Shown in pieces: positions 10,030 through 39,321 of a DNA stretch of 61,383 bases; the stretch's first letter is position 1; each line of letters begins with the position of its first letter. A program made the translations under genes and the position numbers. The notes under the pieces are model-generated. The model did not search any database. It saw nothing but the letters and a program-made list of their open reading frames with translations, and was not told the DNA's origin. The stretch comes from Vulcanimicrobiota bacterium (GTDB lineage: Bacteria; Vulcanimicrobiota; Vulcanimicrobiia; Vulcanimicrobiales; Vulcanimicrobiaceae), in the NCBI GenBank assembly GCA_030041115.1, contig JASHOM010000097.1:1-61383 (forward strand). The letters run 5' to 3'.

Positions 10030-11031
10030 ATGAGCAGGCCGACCTTTCGCCGCCACGCCCTCAGCTTGGGGGCGCTTTGCCTCATTCTTTCGGGTTGCGG
10101 AGGCTTTCAAGCACCGGCGGCGTCGCCGGCCGTGCCGCCGTCCTTTGCCGAGTTTCGCAACGGGACGATTCCCAAGCACCCGGATCGCGCAGCGTCGTGG
10201 ATTGCGCCGGCGACGCAGAAAGAGATCCTCTACCTTTCGGACGCCGGTGCCGACGCCGTCTATCTTTATGCATATCCTTCCGTACGCAGGATCGGGAAGC
10301 TGACCAATCTGCAGGATCCGTCGGGCCTCTGCACCGACGCGGCCGGCAACGTCTGGGTCGTTGAAACCGGCATTTCCCATATCGTCAAATACGCGCACGC
10401 CGGCACCAAGAAAATCGCAAACCTCACCGACTCCGGTTTTCACGATCTGCTGGGCTGCTCGGTCGATCCGACGACCGGCAATCTGGCGGTTGCGGATTTG
10501 GGCGATCCGACCGGAGGCGGCAACGTCGCGATTTATGCCGATGCCAAGGGAACGCCGAAGAGGTATAAATCGGCGGACCTGCAGGCCGCGTACTTCTGCG
10601 GGTACGACGACAGCGGCAATCTCTTCGTCGACGGCATTGACGCCGCCGGCGCGTTCTTGCTCCTCGAGCTGCCGGCGGCGAGCAGCTCGCTGCAAACGAT
10701 CGCGCTCGACCAAAGCGTCGGCTTCCCGGGCGGCATCGAATGGGACGGGCAGTACGTCGCCATCGGCGATCAGGCGTATCAGAGCGGAAACACCTCCGCG
10801 ATCTATCAAGTCTCGGTTTCAGGCTCGAACGCGACGGTGCACGGCACCACCGTGCTAACGGGCAGCTGCGACGTGCTGCAGTTCGGCATCTCGGGCGGCA
10901 CCGTGGGCGCGCCCGACGCTTGCTACAACACCGCGTCGCTTTACAGCTACCCGGCGGGAGGATCGCCGACCGATACGATCACGGGACTGCAATATCCCGT
11001 GGCCGCGGCGGTCAGCATCGCGGCGAAATGA
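10030..11031 (+). CDS. Beta-propeller lipoprotein, paralog A of the family repeated at 29481, 34828, 37562 and 39331
   Basis: MSRPTFRRHALSLGALCLILSGCGG (lipobox). Blocks shared with the paralogs: YLYAYPSVRRIGKLT, GLCTDAAGNVWVV, GCSVDPTTGNLAV, YFCGYDDSGNLFVDG, IEWDGQYVAI, YSYPAGG. Confidence 0.6.
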   Translation: MSRPTFRRHALSLGALCLILSGCGGFQAPAASPAVPPSFAEFRNGTIPKHPDRAASWIAPATQKEILYLSDAGADAVYLYAYPSVRRIGKLTNLQDPSGLCTDAAGNVWVVETGISHIVKYAHAGTKKIANLTDSGFHDLLGCSVDPTTGNLAVADLGDPTGGGNVAIYADAKGTPKRYKSADLQAAYFCGYDDSGNLFVDGIDAAGAFLLLELPAASSSLQTIALDQSVGFPGGIEWDGQYVAIGDQAYQSGNTSAIYQVSVSGSNATVHGTTVLTGSCDVLQFGISGGTVGAPDACYNTASLYSYPAGGSPTDTITGLQYPVAAAVSIAAK

Positions 11032-16544: not shown

Positions 16545-17498
16545 ATGAGGTTTGACGCTCGAGTAGTTTTTGCCGCGTCAGCACTGATATTGGGCTCGTG
16601 CCAAGGCGCGGGCTTCGATAGCGGCATGGGCGGCGACATGTCGCCGCCGGTTTCCAACCCGGGCTCGATGGCCGGCGGCATGCCGGGCGTCGGCGGCATG
16701 GGAAACAACGGCGGCATGGGTAATCAGATCGCCGGGCCCAACGTCGGCATGAACGGCCAGGAAGAGCTGGCGAATCCCGGCGCGACGCTCGCGCCCAACG
16801 AAGCGCAGTATCCGATCGCGCAAGGCCCCACCGGCATGAAGTGCCCGCAAGTACTCGAATTCAGTCAGCCCTACAACTGCACGCTGGCCTTCAACATTCC
16901 GACGCCGTCGCCGGCGCCCAGCGGCTCACCGGGTGCCAAGAGCACGGCCACGCCGACGGCAAGCCCGACGCCGACTCCCAAACCAACGGCTTCGTCCGAC
17001 GATAGCGACGACAGCGACGACGACGACAGCAGCGACTCGCCGACGCCCACGCCCACGCCCGCCGGCATGATGACGATGCTCATGGAGCCCTTGCCGCACG
17101 ACGTGCCGAACATGACCAACCCGAATCCGCTCTTGATGCACGTCACGCCGTTGGTCGCGATCCGTCTGCAGAGCAACATGTCGTTCGAGCTCAACGGCCA
17201 AGCGACGGTGCAGTACACGCTGCCGCAGATACAGTTCACCGGTCGCGTATTCGCGCTGCAGCTCTATAACGAATCGGTCCTGCGCGGGAAGCGTTTCGAT
17301 CAGTTCATCGCGACGTACTCGAAGTTTCAAACGCCGCAGAGCAACACCGTGCAGTTCCAGTTCAGCGTTCCCAAGGTCAGCGTGCGCCCGAACCAGATTT
17401 GGCTGCTCGCCATGTACGGCGCACAGCTTCCACCCGGCACGACGCCGACGCCGTCTCCAACTCCCTCGCCGTCCACCTCTCCCAGCTCATCGCCCTAG
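16545..17498 (+). CDS. Low-complexity lipoprotein (hypothetical)
   Basis: Lipobox ALILGSC. Met/Gly-rich stretch GGMPGVGGMGNNGGMGNQ, PT-rich linkers and the acidic run SSDDSDDSDDDDSSDS. Confidence 0.5.
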   Translation: MRFDARVVFAASALILGSCQGAGFDSGMGGDMSPPVSNPGSMAGGMPGVGGMGNNGGMGNQIAGPNVGMNGQEELANPGATLAPNEAQYPIAQGPTGMKCPQVLEFSQPYNCTLAFNIPTPSPAPSGSPGAKSTATPTASPTPTPKPTASSDDSDDSDDDDSSDSPTPTPTPAGMMTMLMEPLPHDVPNMTNPNPLLMHVTPLVAIRLQSNMSFELNGQATVQYTLPQIQFTGRVFALQLYNESVLRGKRFDQFIATYSKFQTPQSNTVQFQFSVPKVSVRPNQIWLLAMYGAQLPPGTTPTPSPTPSPSTSPSSSP

Positions 17499-26104: not shown

Positions 26105-26635
26105 CTAAGCGGTTGAAGCCGCGCCGGCTTTTTGCTCGCGAATGCGCTCGAGCACGCGAACGAGTCCACTCTGATTTCCGGAAAGGACCGTGACGAGCCC
26201 GCGGATCGGATTCGCGAGTGTTCCGACGAGACTTGCGATGAGTTCAGATTTGGGTGGAAGCTTGGCGAGCGTCTCGACTTGCTTCGCGTCGACGACTTGA
26301 CCGTCGATGTACGCCGCTTTGACCGCGACGCGTTTGACCGTGTCGCTGAAAGTCTTGAGCGCCTTCGCGGGTGCGACGGGGTCGGCTCCGGCGAAGACGA
26401 TCCCCGTCGGGCCGGCGAGGAAGCTCTCGAGCCGTGCCGCAAGATCGCCCGCGGCAATGCGAAAAAGCGTGTTCTTGACGACCGAGTACGTGTTGCCGTC
26501 TTTGCGAAGCTCGCGCCGGAGCTTGGTCAGCTCCTCGACCGTCAAGCCGGTGTAGTCGGTGAGGAATAGGCTTTTTGCGCCGGCGAGTCTTTCGGTGAGC
26601 TCCCCGACGGCGGCTTCTTTACGGGCGGTCGGCAT
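26105..26635 (-). CDS. rplJ: 50S ribosomal protein L10
   Basis: ATG 26635: MPTARKEAAVGELTERLAGAKSLFLTDYTGLTVEELTKLRRELRKDGNTYSVVKNTL. Lies immediately upstream of rplL. Confidence 0.9.
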   Translation of the reverse strand: MPTARKEAAVGELTERLAGAKSLFLTDYTGLTVEELTKLRRELRKDGNTYSVVKNTLFRIAAGDLAARLESFLAGPTGIVFAGADPVAPAKALKTFSDTVKRVAVKAAYIDGQVVDAKQVETLAKLPPKSELIASLVGTLANPIRGLVTVLSGNQSGLVRVLERIREQKAGAASTA

Positions 26636-26667
26636 AGGTTGGTTCTTCCAGTTTGGCGGCGTGCGAT

Positions 26668-26696
26668 GAAACGAAAAGCGCCCCGTGAGGGCGCTT
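26668..26696 (-). promoter_or_regulatory. Terminator-like hairpin in the rplJ 5' leader (candidate L10-leader attenuator)
   Basis: Minus strand reads AAGCGCCC-TCACG-GGGCGCTT followed by TTCGTTTC, ending ~33 nt upstream of the rplJ ATG. No minus-strand gene lies directly upstream that it could terminate. Confidence 0.4.
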
Positions 26697-26788
26697 CCTT
26701 CAAAATCCGCGTCGCGTTCGGCGACCCGGAAATTTTCCACCTGCGTCCTCAGTAGTCAGAATTAAGGCCTTGCGGCCGGCTACGGTCT

Positions 26789-27454
26789 TTGGAGCCGTCG
26801 GCTAGACTACCACAGGATGCCCGGGGAACGCAAGCCGCGCGCCGAAGGCGTTTGCTCGTCGTGACCTTCCGGCCCGTCCTCGACCATGCGCTCGACCTGC
26901 TCAGGGCCGGGAACGCGCGCTTTGTCGCCGGCACGCCGCAGCACGAGCCGTACGGGCCGCGGATCGCCGCCCTGGCCGCCGGGCAGCATCCCTTCGCGAT
27001 CGTTCTGGGCTGCTCCGACTCGCGCGTGCCGGTCGAAACGATCTTCGACCAAGTGCCCGGCAAGGTCTTCGTCGTGCGTGTCGCGGGAAACTTCGTCAAC
27101 GACGATAACCTCGGGTCGATCGAATACGCGGTCGACGTTTTGAAGGCGAGGCTGGTCGTCGTCCTCGGACACAGCAACTGCGGGGCCGTCAGCGCCGCGC
27201 TCGCGTTCGTGCGCGATGGTACGGTTCAGCGTAGTCGAATCCAAGGCATCGTCGAGGCGGTTGCGCCCGCGGTCCGCGCGACGCGCGACCTTCCGGGCGA
27301 TTGGCTCATCAACGCCGTGGAGCGAAACGTCGCGCTCAACGTGCAAGCGCTGATCCGCGGGTCGCCGATCATCGCGGAGCTGGTCGAAGCCGGTGAAGTA
27401 GAGGTCATCGGTGGAATCTACAACGTCGGCACCGGCGTCGTCGCATTCGCGTAG
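26789..27454 (+). CDS. Beta-class carbonic anhydrase
   Basis: LLRAGNARFVAG...PFAIVLGCSDSRVPVETIFD...VVRVAGN...VVLGHSNCGAV (CxDxR ... HxxC zinc ligands). Start uncertain. Confidence 0.85.
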   Translation: MEPSARLPQDARGTQAARRRRLLVVTFRPVLDHALDLLRAGNARFVAGTPQHEPYGPRIAALAAGQHPFAIVLGCSDSRVPVETIFDQVPGKVFVVRVAGNFVNDDNLGSIEYAVDVLKARLVVVLGHSNCGAVSAALAFVRDGTVQRSRIQGIVEAVAPAVRATRDLPGDWLINAVERNVALNVQALIRGSPIIAELVEAGEVEVIGGIYNVGTGVVAFA

Positions 27455-29291
27455 CGGCCGGCTGAGAGCCGCCGTCAATTTCGTCTGCGAGCGCCTTCCG
27501 CTCGCCGTCGTCGCGATCGGCACGATCTTGATGGTGATCGTTTTCGTCGTGGTCGAGGACAACGCGACGCACATCGGCTATTATCCGATCGTCTTCGAGC
27601 GCGATGCCGACCAGGTCGAGGTGGAATCCGGCGCGACGCTCGGCAACGAGCTGCAGACGGGCGACCGTGTCGATCTGCAGGCGTTGACGCCGCCCCAACG
27701 CTTCTCGCTTTTGGCGGGTGCCCGGGCGCAAAGCCGAATCGTGCTGCACGCGTTGCACGGCGATCGAAGCGCACCGGTCGCTTTGACGGCAAGCTCCATC
27801 GACAACTCGCCGCGCGCCAAGCTCACTCGCGACGTCGGCACGCCCTTGTGCTTCTTCCTTTCGCTGGCGCTGGCCAGCGCGCTCTTCTTGATCCGGCCGC
27901 GCCCGATCACGCTCGCTTTCTATTTCTATACGATGCTCATGCTCGTGAAGGTCAATCAGACCGCGCTTGACCTCGCTAGCTGGCCCATCAGCCTTTTCAG
28001 CGACCTGGCGGTCCAAGTCGTCTACCCGCTGGCGCAACTGATGATCCTGATTTTCGCCCAGCGGCTCTACGGCCGTGAAAGCCGCGCGTGGCCGTGGTTC
28101 TTCGGCAGCGCCGTCGCCTTGTCGGCCGTCGTATTCGTCGCGTGGCTCAATCCGATCGTGTGGACGGTTTTTCAGCGGTACGCGATCCCCGGACCGACCA
28201 CGCTCTTCATGAGTCTCTCCGACGCTTTGCTCTTGATCGTCGTGCTCTCCGGGCTGGCCTACATTGCGTCAGGGGCAACGGGAATCGCGCGCGGTCGCGT
28301 CAACTGGGTCATCGCCGGCATCGCGCTGGCGCCGATCCTCGATCTCACGTGGGCCATCACCAACGTGATCAGCACGCTCGCCGGGAACTCATCCAGCCTT
28401 TTATTGACCCTGCAGCACTGGACCGATGCGCTGGGCCCCTGGTTCGGTCTTGCCGGTTCGGTTTTCGTCGTTTACGGCTTTCTCTCCGAACGGGTCATCG
28501 ATTTCCGCTTTGCCATCGGACGCGCCGCGATCTACGGCGGCATTACCGGCGTTATGCTGCTCTTCTTCGGCATTCTCGAGTGGTGGGCCGAGCAGGTCTT
28601 CGAAAGCACGCGCCCGGCGATTTATGTGAGCCTCTTCGCAGCCCTTTTGATCGGCTTTACGCTCAACGGATTGCACGGCCGCGTCGAAAGCTTCTTGAAC
28701 GCGTTCTTCTTTCGCGATCAACATCGGGCGGAAGAGGCTCTGCGCCACGCCTCGCGCGCGCTGGCGAACACGTCGTCGGAGAAAACGCTCATCGAGTTCT
28801 TGGTGGACGAGCCCGTGCGTGTGCTCGGCCTCACCTCGGCCGCGCTGTTTCTCGCCGAACGTGACGGCGGCATCTTTAGCCGCCGGGCCGATTGCGGCTG
28901 GACCCGTCGAGAGACCGAGCGGATCGACCCCGAAGACCCGCTGATCGTGGAGCTGCGCGCCGAGCTCGCCCCGATCGTGCTCGACGGCCGCCCGCGCGCC
29001 GAAACGATCTTACCCGGAGGAGCGCAGGCGCCCTCGATCGTCGTTCCTCTGCTCATGCGCGGCAGCGTCTTCGGCTTCGTCTTCTATGGACCGCGCAGCA
29101 ACGGCACGCCGCTGACATCCGACGAACGCGCGCTATTAGAAGGAATCGCGCGCAGCGCCGGTGCGGCGTACGATCATATCGATGCGGACAAGGCGCACGC
29201 GCGCATCCGCGAACTCGAGGCTCAGCTACGGCGCCTTGAACCGCCGACGCCGATTCCGCCCGCCTCCGGCATCTCCGCGACAGAGCCATGA
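27411..29291 (+). CDS. Multi-pass membrane protein with C-terminal GAF-like sensor domain
   Basis: ~8 hydrophobic segments, then LIEFLVDEPVRVLGLTSAALFL...SIVVPLLMRGSVFGFVFYGPR...LTSDERALLEGIA, which is GAF-like. No kinase or GGDEF output domain seen. Start uncertain (overlaps the CA gene end). Confidence 0.6.
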   Translation: MESTTSAPASSHSRSGRLRAAVNFVCERLPLAVVAIGTILMVIVFVVVEDNATHIGYYPIVFERDADQVEVESGATLGNELQTGDRVDLQALTPPQRFSLLAGARAQSRIVLHALHGDRSAPVALTASSIDNSPRAKLTRDVGTPLCFFLSLALASALFLIRPRPITLAFYFYTMLMLVKVNQTALDLASWPISLFSDLAVQVVYPLAQLMILIFAQRLYGRESRAWPWFFGSAVALSAVVFVAWLNPIVWTVFQRYAIPGPTTLFMSLSDALLLIVVLSGLAYIASGATGIARGRVNWVIAGIALAPILDLTWAITNVISTLAGNSSSLLLTLQHWTDALGPWFGLAGSVFVVYGFLSERVIDFRFAIGRAAIYGGITGVMLLFFGILEWWAEQVFESTRPAIYVSLFAALLIGFTLNGLHGRVESFLNAFFFRDQHRAEEALRHASRALANTSSEKTLIEFLVDEPVRVLGLTSAALFLAERDGGIFSRRADCGWTRRETERIDPEDPLIVELRAELAPIVLDGRPRAETILPGGAQAPSIVVPLLMRGSVFGFVFYGPRSNGTPLTSDERALLEGIARSAGAAYDHIDADKAHARIRELEAQLRRLEPPTPIPPASGISATEP

Positions 29292-29480
29292 CGAATCCGC
29301 TCGCAGAAGCGCCCAACGAGCTTGGCAGTGTTATTTAACGCGGCGGTCGGGCTGGTCGAGATACTGATATAACAGCCGTTAGTTGTAGATAGTCATCGCG
29401 CTGAAGTTTTCGCCGTAGCCGATCGAGCAGCGCGCTAGGAGCTTTCGTCGGGCGCGGCGTTCGGCTGAGTCCATGGACAG

Positions 29481-30497
29481 CTACTGCGATTCGCCCACGG
29501 AAACCGTCACGCCGGTGACCTCCGGGTAACGAACGTCGCCCACGTTCTTTATCTGCCGACGCGGGACGCCACCTGCCGGATATCGCCACAGGAAAGCGTC
29601 CTCATAGCCTCGCTTGGCATAGCCGGTGCCGACGATCGTGCCGCCCTGAATCCAGGTCTGCCCATTGTAATGATTTTTTGAGCTGCTTACTTCCGTCGTG
29701 CCGGCGACCGTTGCGCTGCTTCCCGAAATACGCAGCCGGTAGATCAGCACCGGCTTACGGTTAGGGTAGGAAGTTACCGTCACATATTTTCCGTCCCATT
29801 GCACCGATGGCAAAAGCGTATAGGTGTAGATTTTTTCGTTGAAAGCGATCTGTTCAAATTCGCTACTGCCGGCTGCTAATCGCACTAGCTGCGCTTGATC
29901 TCCATTATACTGACTCGGCGCCGAGAGATAAAGGTTTCCTTTATTGTCGTAACCGCAGTAATAGAAGCCAGAGTTCGAGCTGTAATACATCTTCGGACTT
30001 CCCGAAGCATCCTTGAATATCGCAACACCGTCTCCGGATGCCGCCAGGTTGCCCGTCGTCGGATCAACGGCGCAACCGAAAGCCGCGACCGGATCGCTCA
30101 GCGTCGCAACGGGGCTCGTACCACCGTGGGCGTACTCGTAAATGGTGTGCGATGAGCTGGAGGAAGTAACCACGAATACGTCGCCCGCGGAGTCGGTACA
30201 CTCGCCATACGGCTGCGAGAAGCCCGTTAACGTTCCAACGAGGTGCCCATCGGGATACGTATAGACGTAAACGTCTCCACTGTAGCTGTCCACGACCAGC
30301 CCAGCCGCAACGTAAAGCAGACTCTGGCTCGAAGCGTTGCGCTCCATCCACGACCCCGGAGCGCGCTCAGCTAAGCTTGGCATTGCGCCTTGCGGGCCGC
30401 CGGCGGCCGGCGTCGCGTGCGAGATGCATCCGGACAACACCGCCGCACCGTAGATGCCTACCGCATAACGCTCGAAATGACGAATTCGCATTGCCAT
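29481..30497 (-). CDS. Beta-propeller lipoprotein, paralog B
   Basis: ATG 30497 preceded by GAGGAG: MAMRIRHFERYAVGIYGAAVLSGC (lipobox). Shared blocks: YVYTYPDGHLVGTLTGF, GECTDSAGDVFVV, IYEYAHGGTSPVATL, GCAVDPTTGNLAA, YYCGYDNKGNLYL, VQWDGKYVTV, WRYPAGG. Confidence 0.65.
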   Translation of the reverse strand: MAMRIRHFERYAVGIYGAAVLSGCISHATPAAGGPQGAMPSLAERAPGSWMERNASSQSLLYVAAGLVVDSYSGDVYVYTYPDGHLVGTLTGFSQPYGECTDSAGDVFVVTSSSSSHTIYEYAHGGTSPVATLSDPVAAFGCAVDPTTGNLAASGDGVAIFKDASGSPKMYYSSNSGFYYCGYDNKGNLYLSAPSQYNGDQAQLVRLAAGSSEFEQIAFNEKIYTYTLLPSVQWDGKYVTVTSYPNRKPVLIYRLRISGSSATVAGTTEVSSSKNHYNGQTWIQGGTIVGTGYAKRGYEDAFLWRYPAGGVPRRQIKNVGDVRYPEVTGVTVSVGESQ

Positions 30498-30507
30498 TGC
30501 TCCTCGT

Positions 30508-30804
30508 TTATTTGCCGATCCACGAGAAATATGTTGGCGTTCCGCTGAAGTAGATGTCGTCGCTGGTGTGCCCGCCACCACCCGCAGGGTCCACACAATT
30601 AAAGAACCACGAGCTTCCTGGCCCGGTCGGGGTAATGAGGAAATGAAAGAATGCCGACCCACTCATGCTGCCCAAGACTCCGCCGCCGCCCGACCCGTCG
30701 ATGTCGCATTGGTCCGGAACGGTAAACCCGCTCGATGAGGCGACTACGGGAAAGGTTTGCTGCGGAATAAATGGTCTCCCGCCAACGGGATTTGCTTGAC
30801 TCAT
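30508..30804 (-). CDS. Short ORF equal to an internally deleted derivative of the beta-helix gene at 35894-37534 (possibly a pseudogene)
   Basis: MSQANPVGGRPFIPQQTFPVVASSSGFTVPDQCDIDGSGGGGVLG...FFHFLITP...WFFNCV...YFSGTPTYFSWIGK aligns to residues ~83-150 and to the last ~15 residues of the 546-aa protein. The stop lies 8 nt before the ATG of paralog B. The track ORF starts at TTG 30870. Confidence 0.4.
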   Translation of the reverse strand: MSQANPVGGRPFIPQQTFPVVASSSGFTVPDQCDIDGSGGGGVLGSMSGSAFFHFLITPTGPGSSWFFNCVDPAGGGGHTSDDIYFSGTPTYFSWIGK

Positions 30805-30943
30805 CGCCTCTAGCAGGCACTTAACGCCGAGGTAGGCGTCGCTGCCGGCTGCACGATATAGTAACCGCAACCGGGCACTTCGCTTCGATCGGGGGGGCCT
30901 CCACGTCGCCAGCGCTACCTCGGCGACCTCGTGGAATCGCCGG

Positions 30944-31645
30944 CTAGACGGTCGCCTTCACGCGATTGGGATCGACCTTCACGCCCGGGCCCATCGTACT
31001 TGCTAGGGTGACGCTGCGAAGGTATGTTCCTTTCGCGGCCGACGGCTTTGCGCGGACGATGGCGTCGAGCAGGGTCGTCACGTTTTCGACGAGTTGGGCC
31101 TCCTCGAAACTGGCTTTGCCGACGATCGTGTGGATGATGCCCGTCTTGTCCAGGCGAAACTCGACTTTGCCGGCCTTGATGTCGCGAATCGCGTTGCCGA
31201 CGTTCGGCGTCACGGTTCCCGCTTTGGGATTCGGCATCTTCTGCGCCAAGATGCGGCCCAGCTCTTTGCCGACCTGAGCCATCATGTCGGGCGTTGCGAC
31301 GGCGACGTCGAACTCGCTAAAGCCCCCTTTGACCTTGTCGATGAGATCTTGATCGCCCACAAAGTCCGCGCCGGCTTCCTGCGCGGCCTTCGCATTATCG
31401 CCCTTTGCAAAGGCGATCACGCGCACCGAGCGTCCGGTTCCGTGCGGCAGCAGGACGGTACCGCGTACGCTTTGATCGCTCTTTTTCGGATCGACGCCGA
31501 GCCGCACGTGCGCCTCAACCGTCTCGTTGAACTTGGCGTTGGCGTTTTTCTTGACGACCGCTACCGCCTCCGGCGTCGAGAACAGCCGGCGGCGGTCGAA
31601 CCCTTGGACCAGCGTTTTGAAGCGCTTTCCGTGATGTTGCGCCAT
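30944..31645 (-). CDS. rplA: 50S ribosomal protein L1
   Basis: ATG 31645: [18 protein letters not shown]...[35 protein letters not shown]. Confidence 0.9.
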
Positions 31646-31646
31646 C

Positions 31647-32072
31647 CTACGCCTCCACCTCGACACCCATCGATCGCGCCGTGCCCGCGACGATCTTCTT
31701 CGCCGCTTCCATATCGTTGGCGTTGATGTCGGGCATCTTCACCTTGGCGATCTCTTCGAGTTGCTTCTGGGTTAGCTTGCCGACCTTGTTACGGTTGGGT
31801 TCTTTGCTCCCGGACTCGATCTTGAGCGCCTGTTTGATGAGAAATGACGCCGGCGGGGTCTTGGTGATGAACGTAAACGTCCGATCTTCAAAGACCGTAA
31901 TCTCGACGGGAACGATCATCCCGGCCTGCGACGCGGTACGCTCGTTGTACTGCCTGCAGAAATCCATGATGTTGAGCGAGTATGGTCCGAGCGCGGGACC
32001 GATCGGAGGTGCCGGCGTCGCTTTGCCGGCGGGAATTTGCAGGCCGATCTTGCCTACGACCTTTTTAGCCAC
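31647..32072 (-). CDS. rplK: 50S ribosomal protein L11
   Basis: [49 protein letters not shown] start. Confidence 0.95.
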
Positions 32073-33613: not shown

Positions 33614-33669
33614 GCAGGGTGATTTTGCTTATTCTACGAGACTTTTCTTGCTTCTGTTAATGTTTGCCG

Positions 33670-33928
33670 GGTTCGGCGTCGGTTGCCGCGAGATTCTCGC
33701 CGGCCGCCCGACGAGCCGCTACGATCGCGCCTTCGATTTAGACGACGGCACCCTCCTGGGCGCCCGCAACCAAACATGGCCGCAGACATTCAGCGTCGTT
33801 GCGGCGAGCGCATGCCCGAGAACCGCCGTCACTGTTCTGAGGTCGTTCTCGGCCTGGGAGCGCTTGCGTCGCGCGAAGCGGCTCTTGAACGCTCCAGGAC
33901 CTGAGCGCTCTCGATCGGGGGGCAACAC
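33670..33928 (-). pseudogene. Relic of the 3' end of a tyrosine recombinase (phage-type integrase) gene
   Basis: Minus-strand translation ...AFKSRFARRKRSQAENDLRTVTAVLGHALAATTLNVCGHVW matches the integrase box II / C-terminal pattern (..LRTVQ.LLGHSSIATT..YGHV.). The catalytic Tyr codon reads TGC (Cys). The tail continues only after a frame change and a stop. No N-terminal part is present. Confidence 0.55.
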
Positions 33929-33930
33929 CC

Positions 33931-34200
33931 GACGCTCCAGCAGCGGATGCGGTCGGGCGCCGAAACCTCGCCGATACTAAAGCCAGCCTCAGCAGCCCAG
34001 CATACAAAGCCTCCGGTTCGCTGCTCTTCGTGGCCAACTCCGCCCTGAACGAACGACCGCTGACCATTTACAATGCTCGTGCGGATAATCCCAAGCCGAT
34101 CGCTACGATAAGCAAGGATATCTACAGCTCTAGAGGGGTCTGCATCGACAGCGAAGGCACGCTTTACGTTACCAACGCCGGCAACGGAGTGGCCAGGGGT
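33931..34200 (+). pseudogene. 5' fragment of an NHL-repeat lipoprotein gene (paralog of 38359-39321), lacking a signal peptide and truncated by the IS110 relic
   Basis: Translation ...GSLLFVANSALNERPLTIYNARADNPKPIATISKDIYSSRGVCIDSEGTLYVTNAGNG parallels EPLLYVGNISGYDDVKVYPANAKDPSPIEVISTDLDAPTGDCIDGAGTLYVVNEPPG of the intact gene. Similarity ends at about 34195. Confidence 0.5.
33932..33975 (+). repeat. Copy 1 of a 44-bp near-identical repeat (partner at 38316-38359)
   Basis: ACGCTCCAGCAGCGGATGCGGTCGGGCGCCGAAACCTCGCCGAT versus the same string with a single A/C difference. Weaker similarity extends ~20 bp upstream. Confidence 0.8.
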
Positions 34201-34725
34201 GTCGAACCGCCGACCGGACTTGAGCGTTCCGTACGCCAAGATGAGGAGGCGTCGCATGACGGCAACGATGATCTGCTTGCCGCGCTTGCCCGCACGACGC
34301 AGCTGGTCGGCAAAAGCCTTGAGGGTGGGGATTGCTGCGGATCGCAGCCATTGCCGGCATGGAGAGCATGCGTCGCAGATGGGCATTGCCTGTCTTGGAC
34401 AGCCACGACGCCGAAACGGACCTGCCCGAACGAACCTCACGCGGGCACAGTCCAGCAAACGCAGACAGCGCCTTCGCATTGCGAAACTCGGTGATACGTG
34501 GAATCTCCCCAAGAATCGTGACGGCGAGGCGCTCGCCGATGCCCGGGATCGACGTCAACAGTTCGCGCCGTTCTCGCAGCGTCGGGTCGTTATCGATGAT
34601 CGAGCGGATCTGCGCGTCAATGTCGTCGATCTGGCGGTCCAGGAAAGCAATCGTTGCCTCAAGCGATTCTCGAACGTCGGCCGCCCCCGGAGCACCGAGC
34701 CGATTCGACTCTTGGCAACGGCGGC
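34200..34725 (-). mobile_element. IS110-family transposase relic (C-terminal half only, frameshifted)
   Basis: Minus strand: ...SLEATIAFLDRQIDDIDAQIRSIIDNDPTLRERRELLTSIPGIGERLAVTILGEIPRITEFRNAKALSAFAGLCPREVRSGRSV...SKTGNAHLRRMLSMPAMAAIRSNP. A second frame continues TLKAFADQLRRAGKRGKQIIVAVMRRLLILAYGTLKSGRRFD (Transposase_20 pattern). An in-frame TAA lies at ~34728, and there is no DEDD N-terminal domain. Confidence 0.7.
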
Positions 34726-34827: not shown

Positions 34828-35868
34828 CTAATGCGATGATGGAATTGAAACGGTTACACCGTAGAACGTGCCTATGTCTTTTGCCGGGACATCGCCGATC
34901 TTACGTGCGGGTTTGCCTCCCTTTGGGTAACGCCAGACCCCAACATGCCCGGTCCCCCTGTAATAATAGACTCCAAGGATCCGCTTCCCCTGAATCCAGC
35001 TCTGACCGGCGTGATTGTTATTGCGCGTCTCCAGCTTCGCAGTGCCAATCACCTTAGCGTCGCTTCCCGTGATTTCTAAGCGGAATACCGAGACGAGTCC
35101 ACTCGCGTGTCCTTCGTCGCTCGGGACCGAGGAAATCGTCACGTCCTTTCCATCCCATTGGACTGAGGGCAGAAATCCGATGTGGGCGTAGATTGCATGG
35201 TTGAGGTTAATCGCGTCGATGGAGCCGCTGCCGTGAGCCAGACGAGCCAGCCCTAGGCGAGGCGCCGAGCCGATGCTCACCGGCAGGTACAGATTTCCTT
35301 TCTCATCGTATCCGCAGAAACCGTAAGGCGACATGTCTGAAGTGGTGTAATACAGCGTTGGATTGCCCCGAGCTCCGGCGTAGATCGCCACGCTTCCGAG
35401 ATTTGCTGCGGCTAGATTTCCCGTGGTGGGATCAACGGCACAGCCCCAAGCCTTGCCGGGATCGCCGAGCGTTGCAATCGGGCTAGTACCACCGTGCGCG
35501 TACTCGTAGATCGTGCTTGCATTGCGCGAACTGTTCACATATGCGGTAATGAACACGTCGCCGTCAGAATCGGAGCACTCACCGGCCGGACCGACAAAAC
35601 CCGTGAGAGTGCCGACGAGTTCGCCCTGCGGATAGCTATAAACGTAAACATATCCGCTGTAAAAATTCGAAACGTAGAGCAGATCCCCGCCCGACACGCT
35701 GGCTCTCATCCAGGATCGCCCAAGAGCCTGACGTTCTCCCGGTGGGAACACCGCGCCGCCCGCGGCAGCGCCCGGGATCGCCGCAGTGCGCTCACCTCCG
35801 CAGCCTGAGAGCAATGCCACACTTGCACAAATGCTGACCGCGTCGCGGCCTAAATTAAGCCATCCCAT
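34828..35868 (-). CDS. Beta-propeller lipoprotein, paralog C
   Basis: ATG 35868 preceded by GGAGAGGGGAAGG: MGWLNLGRDAVSICASVALLSGCGG. Shared blocks: YVYVYSYPQGELVGTLTGF, GECSDSDGDVFI, IYEYAHGGTSPIATL, GCAVDPTTGNLAA, FCGYDEKGNLYL, VQWDGKDVTI, WRYPKGG. Confidence 0.65.
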   Translation of the reverse strand: MGWLNLGRDAVSICASVALLSGCGGERTAAIPGAAAGGAVFPPGERQALGRSWMRASVSGGDLLYVSNFYSGYVYVYSYPQGELVGTLTGFVGPAGECSDSDGDVFITAYVNSSRNASTIYEYAHGGTSPIATLGDPGKAWGCAVDPTTGNLAAANLGSVAIYAGARGNPTLYYTTSDMSPYGFCGYDEKGNLYLPVSIGSAPRLGLARLAHGSGSIDAINLNHAIYAHIGFLPSVQWDGKDVTISSVPSDEGHASGLVSVFRLEITGSDAKVIGTAKLETRNNNHAGQSWIQGKRILGVYYYRGTGHVGVWRYPKGGKPARKIGDVPAKDIGTFYGVTVSIPSSH

Positions 35869-35893
35869 CCTGCCTTCCCCTCTCCTAGTCATT

Positions 35894-37534
35894 TCACTTG
35901 CCGATCCACTGGAATACCAACGGCGCGCCACTGAAATAGAAGCTGTCGTACGGACTTGGCAAAAAAATTATCCCGGAATTCATACTGATTCCTTGTCCAA
36001 ACACGTAAACGGTGACGGGGGTGCTGTTCGTGAACATGAAAAGCGACGGCCCGAAGTATGGAGTCGAACACGTTGCGGCGCTGACAGCCTGACCTGAACC
36101 GACCGGCGGAACTCCGCCATTCAGCGCCGTCCCCACATCGTTGTAGCCGTGGCAGTTCGTTATAAAGAGCCCATTGCTGGCGATGGCTCCGGTGACACTC
36201 ACGGGACTGCCAGAGTATCCGTACATGTCGCACGAATCAACCGTCACCGTGCCGGCGGGACTCCCCGAAACCTCCAACGCGTAGAGTTGGCTCCTTACAT
36301 TTTGCGCGTTGTCGTATTTTGGCCGGAGGTTCGCCCCCAAAATCGTCACGTCGCCGCAGGCTCCGGTTATCGCGACCCCCGCGGACGCTGTGCCGTTACC
36401 GGAATACATGCCTCCGATCACGCGGATGTTCTGCCCCGTGTTAATCTCTAGCCCGTGACCGAGTCCCTGATAGATCGTCAGGTTGTCGAGCTCAATGTCA
36501 CTAACGTTTTTGTTCGCTCCGCCGTTGGTGCCAATATAGAATAGCGATTCCGCGTAGGTCGAGTCCGCGCTGAGCGAGAACGTACAGCTCTCATATTTAT
36601 CGCCGAAGATTGTCCCGTCAGAACCAGGCGGCATCATATAAACGCACCTTTGATTTGCGTCACACTCGATTTTCGAGAAGTGGCCGAACTTCGTAGCTCC
36701 GCCGGCCAGGCTGTAGTTTATTCCAAAGTCAAACGAGGATATGTGCATATTGGAAACGACGACGTGCTCGGTGCCGTTCTCAACTGCAATGGCTGTGCAT
36801 CCGGTCGGATCGCCAAGCGTGTCCTGCATAAAAACGCTCGGGCCTATTACGAAGGTTTGCACAGCTCCAAGGATCACCATCGTGGCATTTGCTGGCGAGC
36901 CAGATTGATATTGGATCGTGCACCGAACCAAGCCGCACGAGTTAGCCTGCGCGTTGAACGCTACGGGACAGTTTACGAAATTGCAATCGACCGCTTGGCA
37001 GTTCCACACGCTGGCATAAATGCACGTGTCCGCTGATGTCGGCGTGGGACTATTGCCCCACTCGAACGCTAGGCCGCAGAAATATACGCCGCCGCTGGTG
37101 TGCCCCGAGGTTACGCAGTTAAAGAGATAGCTTTGCGTATCGTCGCCGTAGGGAGTTACGGTGAAGTGGTAAAAGGTGTTGCTACCGGCGAGTCCGCCGC
37201 CTCCCGATCCGGTGATTTGGCACTGGTCAGGGACGCTGTAGCCAGCAGGCGTTGCACTTACTGTAAAGGCCTGCTGCGGGATGAATGCCAACCCGCCGCT
37301 CGCGATCATTGTCGCACTAGGACTGGCCATTACGCCGAGCATGGTGCTCAACGCCGTACTGGCGTTCTTGCCCTCGAGCAAGTACCAGTAGCCAAAATTA
37401 TAAATCGACATGTCCTCGAAGTCGCAGTCGTAGGCGATCGACGTAGAACAACGCGGCTGGCGATCCTGGAGCAACTCAGCCTCGCGGAGAGCCACCTTAT
37501 CAAGCGGTGATCGCCAAAGCGACAATATTTCCAT
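35894..37534 (-). CDS. Cys-rich right-handed beta-helix (tailspike / pectate-lyase-fold-like) protein without a signal peptide
   Basis: 546 aa. Repetitive beta-helix-like rungs (VVVSNMHISSFDFGINY, IELDNLTIYQGLGHGLEINTGQNIRVIGGMYSGNG, VTILGANL, LFITNCHGYNDVG). C-terminal FGPSLFMFTNSTPVTVYVFGQGIS...FSGAPLVFQWIGK. GGGAAGGA lies 7 nt before the ATG. Family assignment is by eye only. Confidence 0.6.
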   Translation of the reverse strand: MEILSLWRSPLDKVALREAELLQDRQPRCSTSIAYDCDFEDMSIYNFGYWYLLEGKNASTALSTMLGVMASPSATMIASGGLAFIPQQAFTVSATPAGYSVPDQCQITGSGGGGLAGSNTFYHFTVTPYGDDTQSYLFNCVTSGHTSGGVYFCGLAFEWGNSPTPTSADTCIYASVWNCQAVDCNFVNCPVAFNAQANSCGLVRCTIQYQSGSPANATMVILGAVQTFVIGPSVFMQDTLGDPTGCTAIAVENGTEHVVVSNMHISSFDFGINYSLAGGATKFGHFSKIECDANQRCVYMMPPGSDGTIFGDKYESCTFSLSADSTYAESLFYIGTNGGANKNVSDIELDNLTIYQGLGHGLEINTGQNIRVIGGMYSGNGTASAGVAITGACGDVTILGANLRPKYDNAQNVRSQLYALEVSGSPAGTVTVDSCDMYGYSGSPVSVTGAIASNGLFITNCHGYNDVGTALNGGVPPVGSGQAVSAATCSTPYFGPSLFMFTNSTPVTVYVFGQGISMNSGIIFLPSPYDSFYFSGAPLVFQWIGK

Positions 37535-37561: not shown

Positions 37562-38148
37562 TCAGCAGCCTCCGTTCATCCGACGATGCAGTAGTCGATG
37601 AGCGTCATCCGAGTTCCAGCCCCCCCCCACGTTCCTAGCAGTGCAGGCAGTCGGGGCCGCCGGCTCGCGGTTCCTGCTGAGCCGGCTTGCCGCGGCGTCG
37701 ACGAATAGGAACACCGGGCACCCGGAAATTGCCGGTTTTGACGATGCCGGAAAATCCCCGCGTTTGCCTTGCAAGGCCGCCGTCTTCGTGGCCGTGCTCT
37801 TGCTCGACGATATCCCCGCGCCCCTGTCCACGATGAAGACCTCTCCTGCCCTGGCCGAACAAAGACCCCCGCGGCGAGTCAAACCCGGAGAGCATTCCGA
37901 CGACCTTGCCCTGAGGGTATGAGAAAACCTGAACCTCGCCTGTTAGGGTACGGGCTCGAGATGTAGAGCAAGTCGCCGCTCTCCGCTTTCGCCCGCATCC
38001 ACGATCGGCTGGACGGCATAGCGCCTGCCCCCGTCGCCTGCAGTGCCGGTACGGTGATATTCCGCGTAGAAACTGCGCCGCAAGCTGCCAGAAGGGCACA
38101 GCAGCCGCAGGTACTTGCTCCTCGAACCAACCGCGAAGATATTGTCAT
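37562..38148 (-). pseudogene. Decayed copy of the beta-propeller lipoprotein gene (multiple frameshifts, shortened)
   Basis: N-terminus MTISSRLVRGASTCGCCALLAACG (lipobox) ...SWMRAKAESGDLLYISS. A second frame gives VQVFSYPQGKVVGMLSGFDSPRG and a third gives LCSARAGEVFIVDRGAG. At ~590 nt it is well short of the ~1020 nt of intact copies. Confidence 0.55.
37620..37628. repeat. C9 (G9 on the coding strand) homopolymer tract
   Basis: Nine consecutive C at 37620-37628, inside the 3' part of the decayed propeller gene and ~86-94 nt upstream of the beta-helix gene ATG. Confidence 0.9.
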
Positions 38149-38315
38149 AAACGGCCCGGGAACCGAGCGTTCTCGAGCTGAACGTTTCTAGCCGATTCTG
38201 TTGAGAAATCAGCTTCAGAAGCAATGAACATTCTAAGGTTCAACCCTTGCCCTCTACCTCTGCGCTGCTTGGCGGCTGCGGCGGGGCGCAGCCGGCACTC
38301 GGAGGGCAGCACCTC

Positions 38316-38359
38316 ACGCTCCAGCAGCGGATGCGGTCGGGCGCCGCAACCTCGCCGAT
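38316..38359 (+). repeat. Copy 2 of the 44-bp repeat, ending at the proposed TTG start of the NHL lipoprotein gene
   Basis: ACGCTCCAGCAGCGGATGCGGTCGGGCGCCGCAACCTCGCCGAT, with one mismatch to 33932-33975. Confidence 0.8.
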
Positions 38360-39321
38360 TGACGAGGCACTCGGAGTTTGGTCGCTACACGGCGGTCCTG
38401 TGCGGTCTCGCCGGGCTGCTTGCGAGCTGCGGCAGATCGCAATTGCCCGTGGGTCCGCCAAACGACGCCTCGAACGTCGGCATGACTGCAGGTGCGCATT
38501 CGGAGCCGCTGCTGTACGTTGGCAATATCTCGGGATATGACGATGTTAAAGTTTACCCTGCGAACGCTAAAGATCCTAGCCCAATAGAGGTTATCTCAAC
38601 TGATCTAGATGCTCCAACCGGCGACTGCATCGACGGTGCCGGCACGCTCTATGTCGTCAACGAGCCACCTGGGCGGGGCTGGGTCACAGAATTCCCTGCT
38701 GGGAAAACGAAGCCATCGAAAGTCATTAGGAAAGGGATCAATACGCCGGCATTCTGCGCGATTGACAGCAATGGAAATCTTTGGGTGACGAACATCGGTG
38801 GCCCGAACGTCACTGAATATGAGAACGGTTCAACCAAGCCGCACACGATCATCACGAAAGGCATCATCTATCCGGACGGGATCGCGATCGACGACGCGGG
38901 AAACATGTACGTCGCGAACCACGTAACTGACGGTACTAAAAGTTTCGGTCCCGGAAACGTCGTCGTCTATCCGTCCGGCAGCAAATCGCCCAGCAGGACC
39001 ATCACCGATAGCGTAGTTTCCCCGGTGGGCATCACGGTAGACGCGAGCGGCACGCTCTACGTAACCAACGAAACCGAGAACAACGTGCAGGAGTATCGGA
39101 CAGGTCAGAGTCACCCCTATCAGACGATTACGCAGGACATGGTCCGTCCAATTGCGGTGACGGTTGACAAGAAGGGCTATCTCTATGTGACGGACGGTGG
39201 GGATAGCGTAGTCGTCGAGTTTTCGCCTGGCTCGATTACGCCGTCGAATCGCAAAATCAGCAAAGGTCTCTTCGAGCCGGAAGGAACGGCGTATTCGCCT
39301 CCGCTACTGCCGCAAAACTGA
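38359..39321 (+). CDS. NHL-repeat beta-propeller lipoprotein
   Basis: TTG 38359 gives LTRHSEFGRYTAVLCGLAGLLASCG (lipobox). NHL-like units: NTPAFCAIDSNGNLWVTNIGGPNVTEY, IIYPDGIAIDDAGNMYVANH, VVSPVGITVDASGTLYVTNETENNVQEY, MVRPIAVTVDKKGYLYVTDGGDSVVVEF. The ORF in the track opens at 38224. Confidence 0.65.
   Translation: MTRHSEFGRYTAVLCGLAGLLASCGRSQLPVGPPNDASNVGMTAGAHSEPLLYVGNISGYDDVKVYPANAKDPSPIEVISTDLDAPTGDCIDGAGTLYVVNEPPGRGWVTEFPAGKTKPSKVIRKGINTPAFCAIDSNGNLWVTNIGGPNVTEYENGSTKPHTIITKGIIYPDGIAIDDAGNMYVANHVTDGTKSFGPGNVVVYPSGSKSPSRTITDSVVSPVGITVDASGTLYVTNETENNVQEYRTGQSHPYQTITQDMVRPIAVTVDKKGYLYVTDGGDSVVVEFSPGSITPSNRKISKGLFEPEGTAYSPPLLPQN

Follow-up and report, generated by a model that had tools for sequence, protein, structure and literature searches.

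An intact beta-helix and propeller-lipoprotein gene pair in a Vulcanimicrobiota contig, probably the stranded core of a mobilizable-element cargo operon

The stretch of DNA analyzed here, hereafter the window, is the 61,383-nt contig JASHOM010000097.1 of the Vulcanimicrobiota bacterium assembly GCA_030041115.1, and our subject is a pair of adjacent genes within it, of which the first encodes a signal-less right-handed beta-helix protein (BH) and the second a beta-propeller lipoprotein (LP1, a member of what we call the LP family). We conclude that this pair is probably the intact core of a cargo operon belonging to a family of integrative mobilizable elements (IMEs), stranded in the chromosome without mobility genes. 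In related loci BH and LP genes belong to a four-gene operon that also encodes a small protein (S) and a second beta-helix protein (BH2), and a stranded cargo module of this kind explains the low-GC island in which the window pair lies. The organization is solid and unexpected; function is inferred only, and a role as a surface recognition or exclusion cassette is the mechanism that we tentatively favor.

Both genes of the pair are genuine: for BH there are 75 full-length homologs (at 40-50% identity and with E as low as 1e-154) and for LP more than 1,756 homologs, a count that is itself a lower bound. When 1.84 billion cluster representatives were searched with a profile, only 389 relatives of BH were returned, with no annotated distant relative among them, and the few that carried a source name were Eremiobacterota. 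As the first-pass annotation of this DNA had described, BH is a Cys-rich protein of 546 aa (19 Cys in the translation from the six-frame list of open reading frames, ORFs), and inspection of its N-terminus, MEILSLWRSPLDKVALREAELLQDRQPRC, revealed no hydrophobic segment of the kind that makes a signal peptide. The coupling between the two genes was also exactly as claimed: the 3' end of BH reads ...TGG ATC GGC AAG TGA, after which come 25 nt, AATGACTAGGAGAGGGGAAGGCAGG, containing a purine-rich ribosome-binding site that was graded strong, and then the ATG at 35868 that opens the 346-aa ORF with its lipobox LLSGC. The start of LP1, MGWLNLGRDAVSICASVALLSG-C, conforms to a lipobox, a putative site of processing by Lgt/Lsp, and in 34 LP homologs the conservation of the lipobox Cys is 90% or more. 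Both window proteins are full length and retain all invariant columns of their family alignments, and since every family-invariant residue is kept, the pair is probably still functional. The horizontal origin that had been proposed from an AT-rich composition is supported by a GC scan, in which BH (GC 0.557) was the second lowest of 598 segments of 1.6 kb each (mean 0.629, sd 0.025), and by GC content at third codon positions (GC3), which is 0.62-0.68 in BH, LP1 and a second lipoprotein gene of the window, LP2, versus 0.77-0.81 in rplA, rplK, nusG and a GAF-domain gene. Promoter and terminator scans gave results at background level.

Searches with BH, LP and S against Pfam, PHROGs, PADLOC, NCBIfam and PDB sequences returned nothing usable. 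Window BH had no Pfam match and did not reach the gathering threshold for beta-helix families; its relatives scored 20.6 bits against PF13229 (cut-off 25.9) and 21.3 bits against PF12708 (cut-off 27), with one distant member, P0262, clearing PF13229 at 51.6 bits. Structure was more informative about the tailspike-like beta-helix that had been predicted. The AlphaFold2 (AF2) model of BH, built from a 37-sequence alignment with a mean predicted local-distance score (pLDDT) of 89.2, consists of N-terminal helices, a right-handed beta-helix over approximately residues 80-460 and a C-terminal beta-sandwich at 497-546. Its best Foldseek matches in the PDB, with tailspikes on top, were the HK620, Sf6, CBA120 and Pam1 tailspikes, capsule depolymerases and trimeric inulin fructotransferases (E 4e-7 and weaker, template-modeling (TM) score about 0.5), and among predicted viral structures the top matches were phage "pectate lyase superfamily" tail proteins (E 2e-9), so that every top match of the model was a beta-helix protein, as the predicted fold would have it. 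Together with the phage homologs described below, these results show BH to be a right-handed beta-helix protein descended from a phage tailspike lineage. In the family alignment E290 and D346 are nearly invariant acidic residues and thus candidate catalytic sites, and residues 1-28 are among the most conserved portions of the protein. The resemblance to podovirus tailspikes and their like (P22, Sf6 and HK620 TSP; CBA120 TSP3; capsule depolymerases) lies in a signal-less beta-helix with a C-terminal beta-sandwich. BH differs from them in having no sequence similarity to a characterized tailspike or PDB chain and no PHROG match, in an N-terminal region of ~40 residues in place of their ~110-residue particle-binding domain, and in its location on mobilizable elements or, as a stranded gene, in the chromosome, with no virion genes.

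Divergent BH variants also exist. P0073 and P0075 have other N-termini and were found in neither a phage nor an IME context. At L033:10001-11974 another such variant, of 657 aa and with a different N-terminus, is preceded by a 144-aa ORF (L033:9567-10001) that abuts its start codon, an arrangement that echoes the S-BH2 coupling described below; the L033 locus has no recognizable S, IME or phage genes.

The propeller lipoprotein of the earlier prediction was borne out as well. The AF2 model of LP (pLDDT 84.5) has 24 strands forming six blades of four, and its Foldseek matches are YWTD/LRP, kelch, NHL and TolB propellers. LP thus shares the 24-strand, six-bladed build of NHL, YWTD and SGL propellers; unlike those families, LP1, LP2 and the third intact LP of the window, LP3, have no Pfam NHL or SGL match (only the neighboring gene at 38224-39321 scores NHL/SGL), and no NCBIfam family was assigned to LP1 or LP2. 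The family is hugely expanded in Eremiobacterota/Vulcanimicrobiota, very large and lineage-specific, and exceeds the BH family more than 20-fold (>1,756 versus 75). LP is thereby shown to be a lipobox-bearing six-bladed propeller recruited from a large lineage-specific lipoprotein family. LP3 (10030-11031, plus strand) has a normal GC of 0.638 and a GC3 of 0.78, and elsewhere (L046:5592-9008) three LP genes stand in tandem without any BH.

The pairing of the two genes proved to be conserved. Hidden Markov models (HMMs) for each of BH, LP and S were applied to 27 genomic loci, to 7 metagenomic ones and to those retrieved by an exact look-up, and the order BH then LP was found in about 20 distinct loci, with spacers of 15-40 nt at most junctions. 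The two-gene module of the first-pass annotation stands insofar as the window pair is intact and its synteny recurs, as had been anticipated; the unit itself, however, is a four-gene operon. Its canonical form is BH1, a spacer of 15-40 nt, LP, a 4-nt overlap, S, a further 4-nt overlap, and BH2, and this order occurs in L002, L004-L011, L013 and L036, among others. Variants are S-BH-LP-BH-BH (L001/L003), BH-S-LP-BH (L014), BH-LP-S (L016, L017, L022, L038/L039) and BH-S-BH (L045). S is a conserved protein of ~108 aa whose N-terminus is basic and whose tail is acidic; with 108 database matches (50-100% identity to the query, mostly 70-88%), it is co-distributed with BH. All organism labels are Eremiobacterota/Vulcanimicrobiota (Cybelea, Tumulicola, Baltobacteraceae) except for one "Binatia". 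BH loci are often found at the extreme ends of long-read contigs from metagenome-assembled genomes (L002, L009, L012, L013, L014, L017, L023, L027), which suggests that these elements, present in several copies or in tandem, interrupt assemblies and that their number may be underestimated. At L001:4279-14268 the S-BH-LP-BH-BH version is inserted between the non-homologous end-joining genes ligD and ku, and its 10-kb flanks contain neither integrase nor relaxase; this is another stranded copy in a different chromosomal context.

The vehicle of the operon is evident from the genes beside it. In L004/L031, L006, L007/L029, L009, L013, L014 and L023 the operon is divergent from an adjacent relaxase gene, and in L016 the relaxase lies downstream of the operon instead. 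The relaxase is of the MOBP class (PF03432, TraI_middle and NF041893 TraI/MobA(P), E 6.6e-62), is followed in most such loci by an HTH_17 excisionase and a tyrosine integrase, and the integrase in turn borders a tRNA gene (Glu, Gln-Glu, Leu or Ser) wherever the flank is present. The 3' end of the tRNA is repeated beyond BH2, giving direct repeats like those of attachment (att) sites, in L029 (21 nt, 100% identity, 9,936 bp apart), L031 (26 nt, 96%, 11,552 bp apart) and L017 (26 nt, 88%, 7,793 bp apart). Because these repeats enclose the backbone genes and the operon only, in elements of ~8-11.5 kb, the related loci are IMEs whose sole cargo is the BH-LP-S-BH module. Two units stand in tandem in L006, and the unit neighboring that of L031 is an element with a type IV secretion system (T4SS; VirB4, B6, B8, B9, B10). 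The relaxase-BH1 spacer contains an exact 24-nt motif, TTTCAAAACGCAAGCCGGTGGTTG, a candidate origin of transfer (oriT)/nic region or operator, at L029:9534-9557, L031:5648-5671, L006:7152-7175 and 17303-17326, L013:2562-2585 and L014:7597-7620; it is exact although the elements that carry it are otherwise 74-87% identical. Just outside the att-like repeat of L017, beside a second integrase, are five head-to-tail copies of an 18-nt unit, TCGCGCGGTGAGTTACAT (L017:8240-8347). These loci share with described IMEs (PMC5704250) the tyrosine integrase, the excisionase, a single MOBP relaxase, the lack of a T4SS of their own, insertion at tRNA 3' ends, direct repeats, tandem accretion and, in one case, a T4SS element alongside. 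They differ in that the cargo is a tailspike-derived operon rather than the usual resistance, metabolic or defense genes, and the window locus differs further in having lost the entire backbone.

Such an arrangement invites the explanation that the module promotes transfer, with BH1 and BH2 serving as depolymerases or adhesins that breach or grip the polysaccharide layer of the recipient during conjugation and LP as an envelope anchor or co-receptor. We regard this as rather unlikely, even though the operon is the sole cargo and is divergent from the relaxase across the conserved candidate oriT motif, the relaxase-BH block persists while the integrase and tRNA target change, a T4SS unit adjoins in L031, and the modeled fold of BH is of a depolymerase type. 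BH has neither a signal peptide nor a recognizable T4SS signal, its LP neighbor is exchanged independently, stranded loci of the BH-LP or BH-S-BH kind stay intact without transfer genes, and searching the literature for genes of tailspikes or depolymerases on integrative and conjugative elements or IMEs yielded no relevant precedent.

The window locus retains only part of this organization. The window yielded no homologs of capsid, terminase, portal, relaxase, integrase or T4SS genes, and tblastn with all backbone and T4SS proteins likewise detected no integrase, excisionase, relaxase or T4SS gene there; the intact pair is therefore stranded cargo, and we class the locus as derived cargo rather than as an IME. 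The statement of the first-pass annotation that capsid, terminase, portal and secretion genes are absent thus holds for the window itself but not for the family, whose related loci are IME cargo with a T4SS beside one of them. A second copy in the window points to the same ancestry. The earlier claim that the gene order and spacing recur at 29481-30870 was only partly accurate: LP2 is intact, but the BH gene in front of it is a 120-aa remnant that has lost the N-terminus and ~380 internal residues while keeping the last ~17, and the gap from its stop to the LP2 start is 16 nt. The remnant is 63-68% identical to residues ~58-150 of BH1 from L029 and L031 and coincides with DNA repeats D6 and D7. 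Downstream of LP2, at 29382-29474, the first 14 codons of S run into 17 codons of a second BH gene (residues ~28-45), with HMM matches to S (positions 2-17, E 1.3e-4) and to BH (positions 26-45, E 2.1e-5). As both S and BH2 remnants are present, copy 2 (29379-30870) derives from the canonical operon and is an eroded four-gene BH1-LP-S-BH2 module.

The operon is not inherited as a single block, and this bears on the role of LP. Across ten elements the median pairwise identity was 80% for S, 67% for BH1, 61% for BH2 and 49% for LP, and the distances of BH1 correlated with those of BH2 at r=0.87 and the distances of either with those of S at r=0.73-0.76, whereas LP correlated with BH1 at r=0.46 and with S at r=0.18. 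In L009, L013 and L014 the BH1 proteins are 84-89% identical while the LP proteins share 46-48% in both pairs that involve L014 and 69% in L009/L013. These results show that BH1, S and BH2 are inherited together and that the LP slot, nearly always filled, is exchanged independently, being refilled by recombination from the very large host family. The proposal that LP is the dedicated exporter, anchor, effector partner or immunity protein of BH is weakened, because LP is swapped independently, the closest BH relative of the window protein is without LP, and LP genes are mostly without BH. The behavior of LP fits that of a fast-diversifying envelope determinant.

Effectors of the Xanthomonas X-T4SS pair with lipoprotein immunity proteins (X-Tfe/X-Tfi), and the window pair resembles them in that a signal-less, enzyme-like protein is directly followed by a lipoprotein gene and a T4SS lies near some related loci (L031). 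By analogy, BH could be a toxin that is secreted, for instance through a T4SS, and degrades the envelope, and LP its periplasmic immunity protein, with the BH-less LP arrays resembling orphan-immunity arrays. We consider this very improbable, since the co-variation expected of such a pair is not seen between BH1 and LP (r=0.46, versus 0.87 for BH1 and BH2; LP at 46-48% beside BH1 at 84-89% in two of the three pairs), there is no cognate lipoprotein for BH2, and the LP family is the larger by far. No XVIPCD-like tag was recognized in BH, and its conserved C-terminus, which recurs in phage homologs, is part of the fold and not a secretion tag; homology to virion proteins is a further difference from X-Tfe. 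A tight effector-immunity pair was rejected on the lack of BH-LP co-variation, the partnerless BH2 and the mismatch in family size.

The ancestry of BH is visible in phages. A scan of IMG/VR with the BH alignment returned one viral contig and a follow-up scan a second (L035/L043 and L044), both from uncultivated phages with P22-like portals. On both, a P22-like portal gene (PF16510, E 1.4e-29; phrog_156), a major head protein gene (phrog_9953, E 1.5e-46 and 6e-54) and two ORFs are followed by a BH homolog of 625-643 aa; the homolog of L035/L043, downstream of the portal and major head protein, has 643 aa, and in L044 further large ORFs of structural size lie 3' of it. The phage proteins match window BH over its full length at 31-34% identity (E 9e-58 and 4e-60) and end as it does (...W(I/Y)G(K); (F/Q)W(I/Y)G). 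An N-terminal motif, SP(L/I)D.VAL..A..L...QPR, is common to window BH and the L035 phage protein, while the N-terminus of the L044 protein differs. In a neighbor-joining tree the phage protein roots the BH family, BH1 and BH2 form separate clades, and window BH branches below both.

These relatives qualify the earlier view that BH is no ordinary prophage tail gene, which is correct as regards the absence of phage genes in the window but must now accommodate homologs in phage head-tail gene blocks, a setting seen only in the distant homologs of L035/L043 and L044 and not in window BH. That BH is a leftover tail gene of a cryptic prophage, with LP adjacent to it by accident, we find barely credible: the phage homologs and a locus full of pseudogenes with an insertion-sequence (IS) fragment would suit such a history, but neither the window nor any of the 27 related genomic loci holds another phage gene, about 20 independent loci repeat the BH-LP(-S-BH) order, always beside an integrase/relaxase backbone rather than phage genes, and BH and LP1 are full length with all invariant residues kept. 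An ordinary prophage tail gene was thus rejected, largely by synteny.

The phage homologs also raise the possibility that element-encoded tailspikes enter the virions of co-resident phages and either retarget them, as a satellite might, or spoil them, while LP blocks re-adsorption. Assembly in the cytoplasm would account for the missing signal peptide, and the conservation of residues 1-28, the N-terminal motif common to element BH and the L035 phage protein and the likeness of two BH paralogs to dual-tailspike phages could all be understood in this way. The N-terminus of the L044 homolog is different, though, the elements have no packaging, capsid or phage-sensing genes and no PADLOC match, and their relaxase points to conjugative rather than transductional spread, which together make phage parasitism or decoy decidedly unlikely.

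A surface recognition or exclusion cassette is tentatively favored because the gene order mirrors that of a receptor-binding protein followed by an exclusion lipoprotein. In phages this layout is known from T5 pb5/Llp, from Cor and from loci downstream of gpJ (lambda-J-like), where the lipoprotein mediates superinfection exclusion (PMC9586334). As in the T5 pb5/Llp type, the lipoprotein gene is directly downstream of and co-oriented with a receptor-binding-type gene, across the 25-nt spacer in the window and in about 20 related loci, and the lipoprotein is the fast-evolving partner. BH would be made in the cytoplasm like a tailspike and would probably form a trimer that binds or cleaves envelope polysaccharide; LP would be exported by Sec/Lol and reside in the envelope, where it would be a surface or exclusion determinant that diversifies rapidly; and the module would set which phages or conjugation partners engage the carrier cell. 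In its broadest form, the proposal would be that a family of mobilizable elements captured phage tailspikes and employs them, alongside a swappable surface lipoprotein and the conserved small acidic protein, as an apparatus of its own for target-cell recognition or exclusion, either repurposed for conjugative transfer or used by a conjugative hitcher to arm or sabotage co-resident phage virions; taken whole, we hold this to be unlikely.

Several observations weigh against both the cargo interpretation and the recognition/exclusion role that we prefer. S, BH2 and the backbone are missing from the window copy, and what points to its origin from an IME is homology and composition only; att repeats (including tRNA-Glu) and the 24-nt candidate oriT motif were searched for in the window and are absent, so that no element could be delimited there. 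The closest BH relative of the window protein lies in a BH-S-BH locus without LP and with no mobility genes within 10 kb, and most LP-family members are chromosomal and not linked to BH. Neither LP nor S was found adjoining the phage BH homologs on the two viral contigs, and the ORF downstream of the L044 homolog is not a lipoprotein. Llp, Cor and other known exclusion lipoproteins are smaller than 10 kDa and phage-encoded, whereas LP is a 346-aa, 35-kDa propeller drawn from a large host family and carried by a relaxase-bearing element. The Foldseek scores of BH are modest (TM about 0.5, 10-12% identity). BH is signal-less and the elements encode no exporter, a difficulty for every extracellular reading, in which the protein would have to leave the cytoplasm.

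While the fold classes, lipoproteins and IMEs are already known, our literature search found no description of the three families, of the four-gene architecture or of its role as exclusive cargo on tRNA-integrating MOBP elements. The present analysis ties the BH, S and LP families to a defined genetic unit and vehicle in Eremiobacterota/Vulcanimicrobiota, a nearly uncultured group in which, to our knowledge, almost nothing has been established about mobile elements, phages or envelope biology. An IME with a pair of phage-tailspike descendants as its only cargo is unusual. If the module serves recognition of phages or mating partners, this would show that receptor-binding hardware moves between phages and conjugative hitchers; if captured tailspikes act as an apparatus of the element, they would connect phage biology and conjugation functionally in a way not described before. 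The att repeats, the candidate oriT motif and the two candidate phages provide handles for follow-up.

The features of the window that bear on the pair and on its eroded second copy are listed in Table 1.

Table 1. Features of the BH-LP1 locus and of copy 2 in the 61,383-nt window
Feature	Coordinates	Strand	Description	Evidence
BH	35894..37534	(-)	546-aa signal-less right-handed beta-helix protein, phage tailspike homolog	ORF, homologs, AF2/Foldseek, GC
BH-LP spacer	35869..35893	(-)	25 nt AATGACTAGGAGAGGGGAAGGCAGG, Shine-Dalgarno-like GGAGAGGGGAAGG	sequence read
LP1	34828..35868	(-)	346-aa lipoprotein, lipobox LLSGC, six-bladed beta-propeller	ORF, homologs, AF2, Foldseek
LP pseudogene	37635..38148	(-)	frameshifted, degraded, directly upstream of BH	LP HMM fragments 37866-37946 and 37951-38121; tblastn fragments; sequence read
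IS110-family transposase fragment	34169..34558	(-)	C-terminal Transposase_20 only; ~270 nt downstream of LP1	PF02371, E 3e-23
BH1 remnant	30508..30870	(-)	120-aa ORF, profile positions 54-146 and 529-545	HMM matches
LP2	29481..30491	(-)	intact 336-aa LP-family lipoprotein (P0156), 52% identical to LP1	LP HMM positions 1-350, E 3e-142
S-BH2 fusion remnant	29379..29474	(-)	S remnant MDSAERRARRKLLA in frame with BH2 N-terminal fragment RCSIGYGENFSAMTIYN, then stop	translation and HMM

Copy 2 is contained in an insert of ~4.2 kb (26741-30943) that separates rplK-rplA from rplJ (window 26105-31666). The same insert holds a beta-carbonic-anhydrase-like gene and a gene for a GAF-domain membrane protein, and the BH remnant begins only 74 nt past the rplA stop. 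Close to BH-LP1 are genes for tRNA-Arg and tRNA-Trp. A 61-nt direct repeat (92% identity) occurs at 33915-33975 and 38299-38359, at the 5' ends of two NHL-type lipoprotein genes, of which the one at 38224-39321, with its NHL/SGL Pfam matches, is intact and neighbors the BH locus, while the second (about 33650-34250) appears to be truncated at the start of the IS110 transposase fragment. Because the BH-LP pair sits between these two repeat-marked genes, a duplication or insertion event is suggested.

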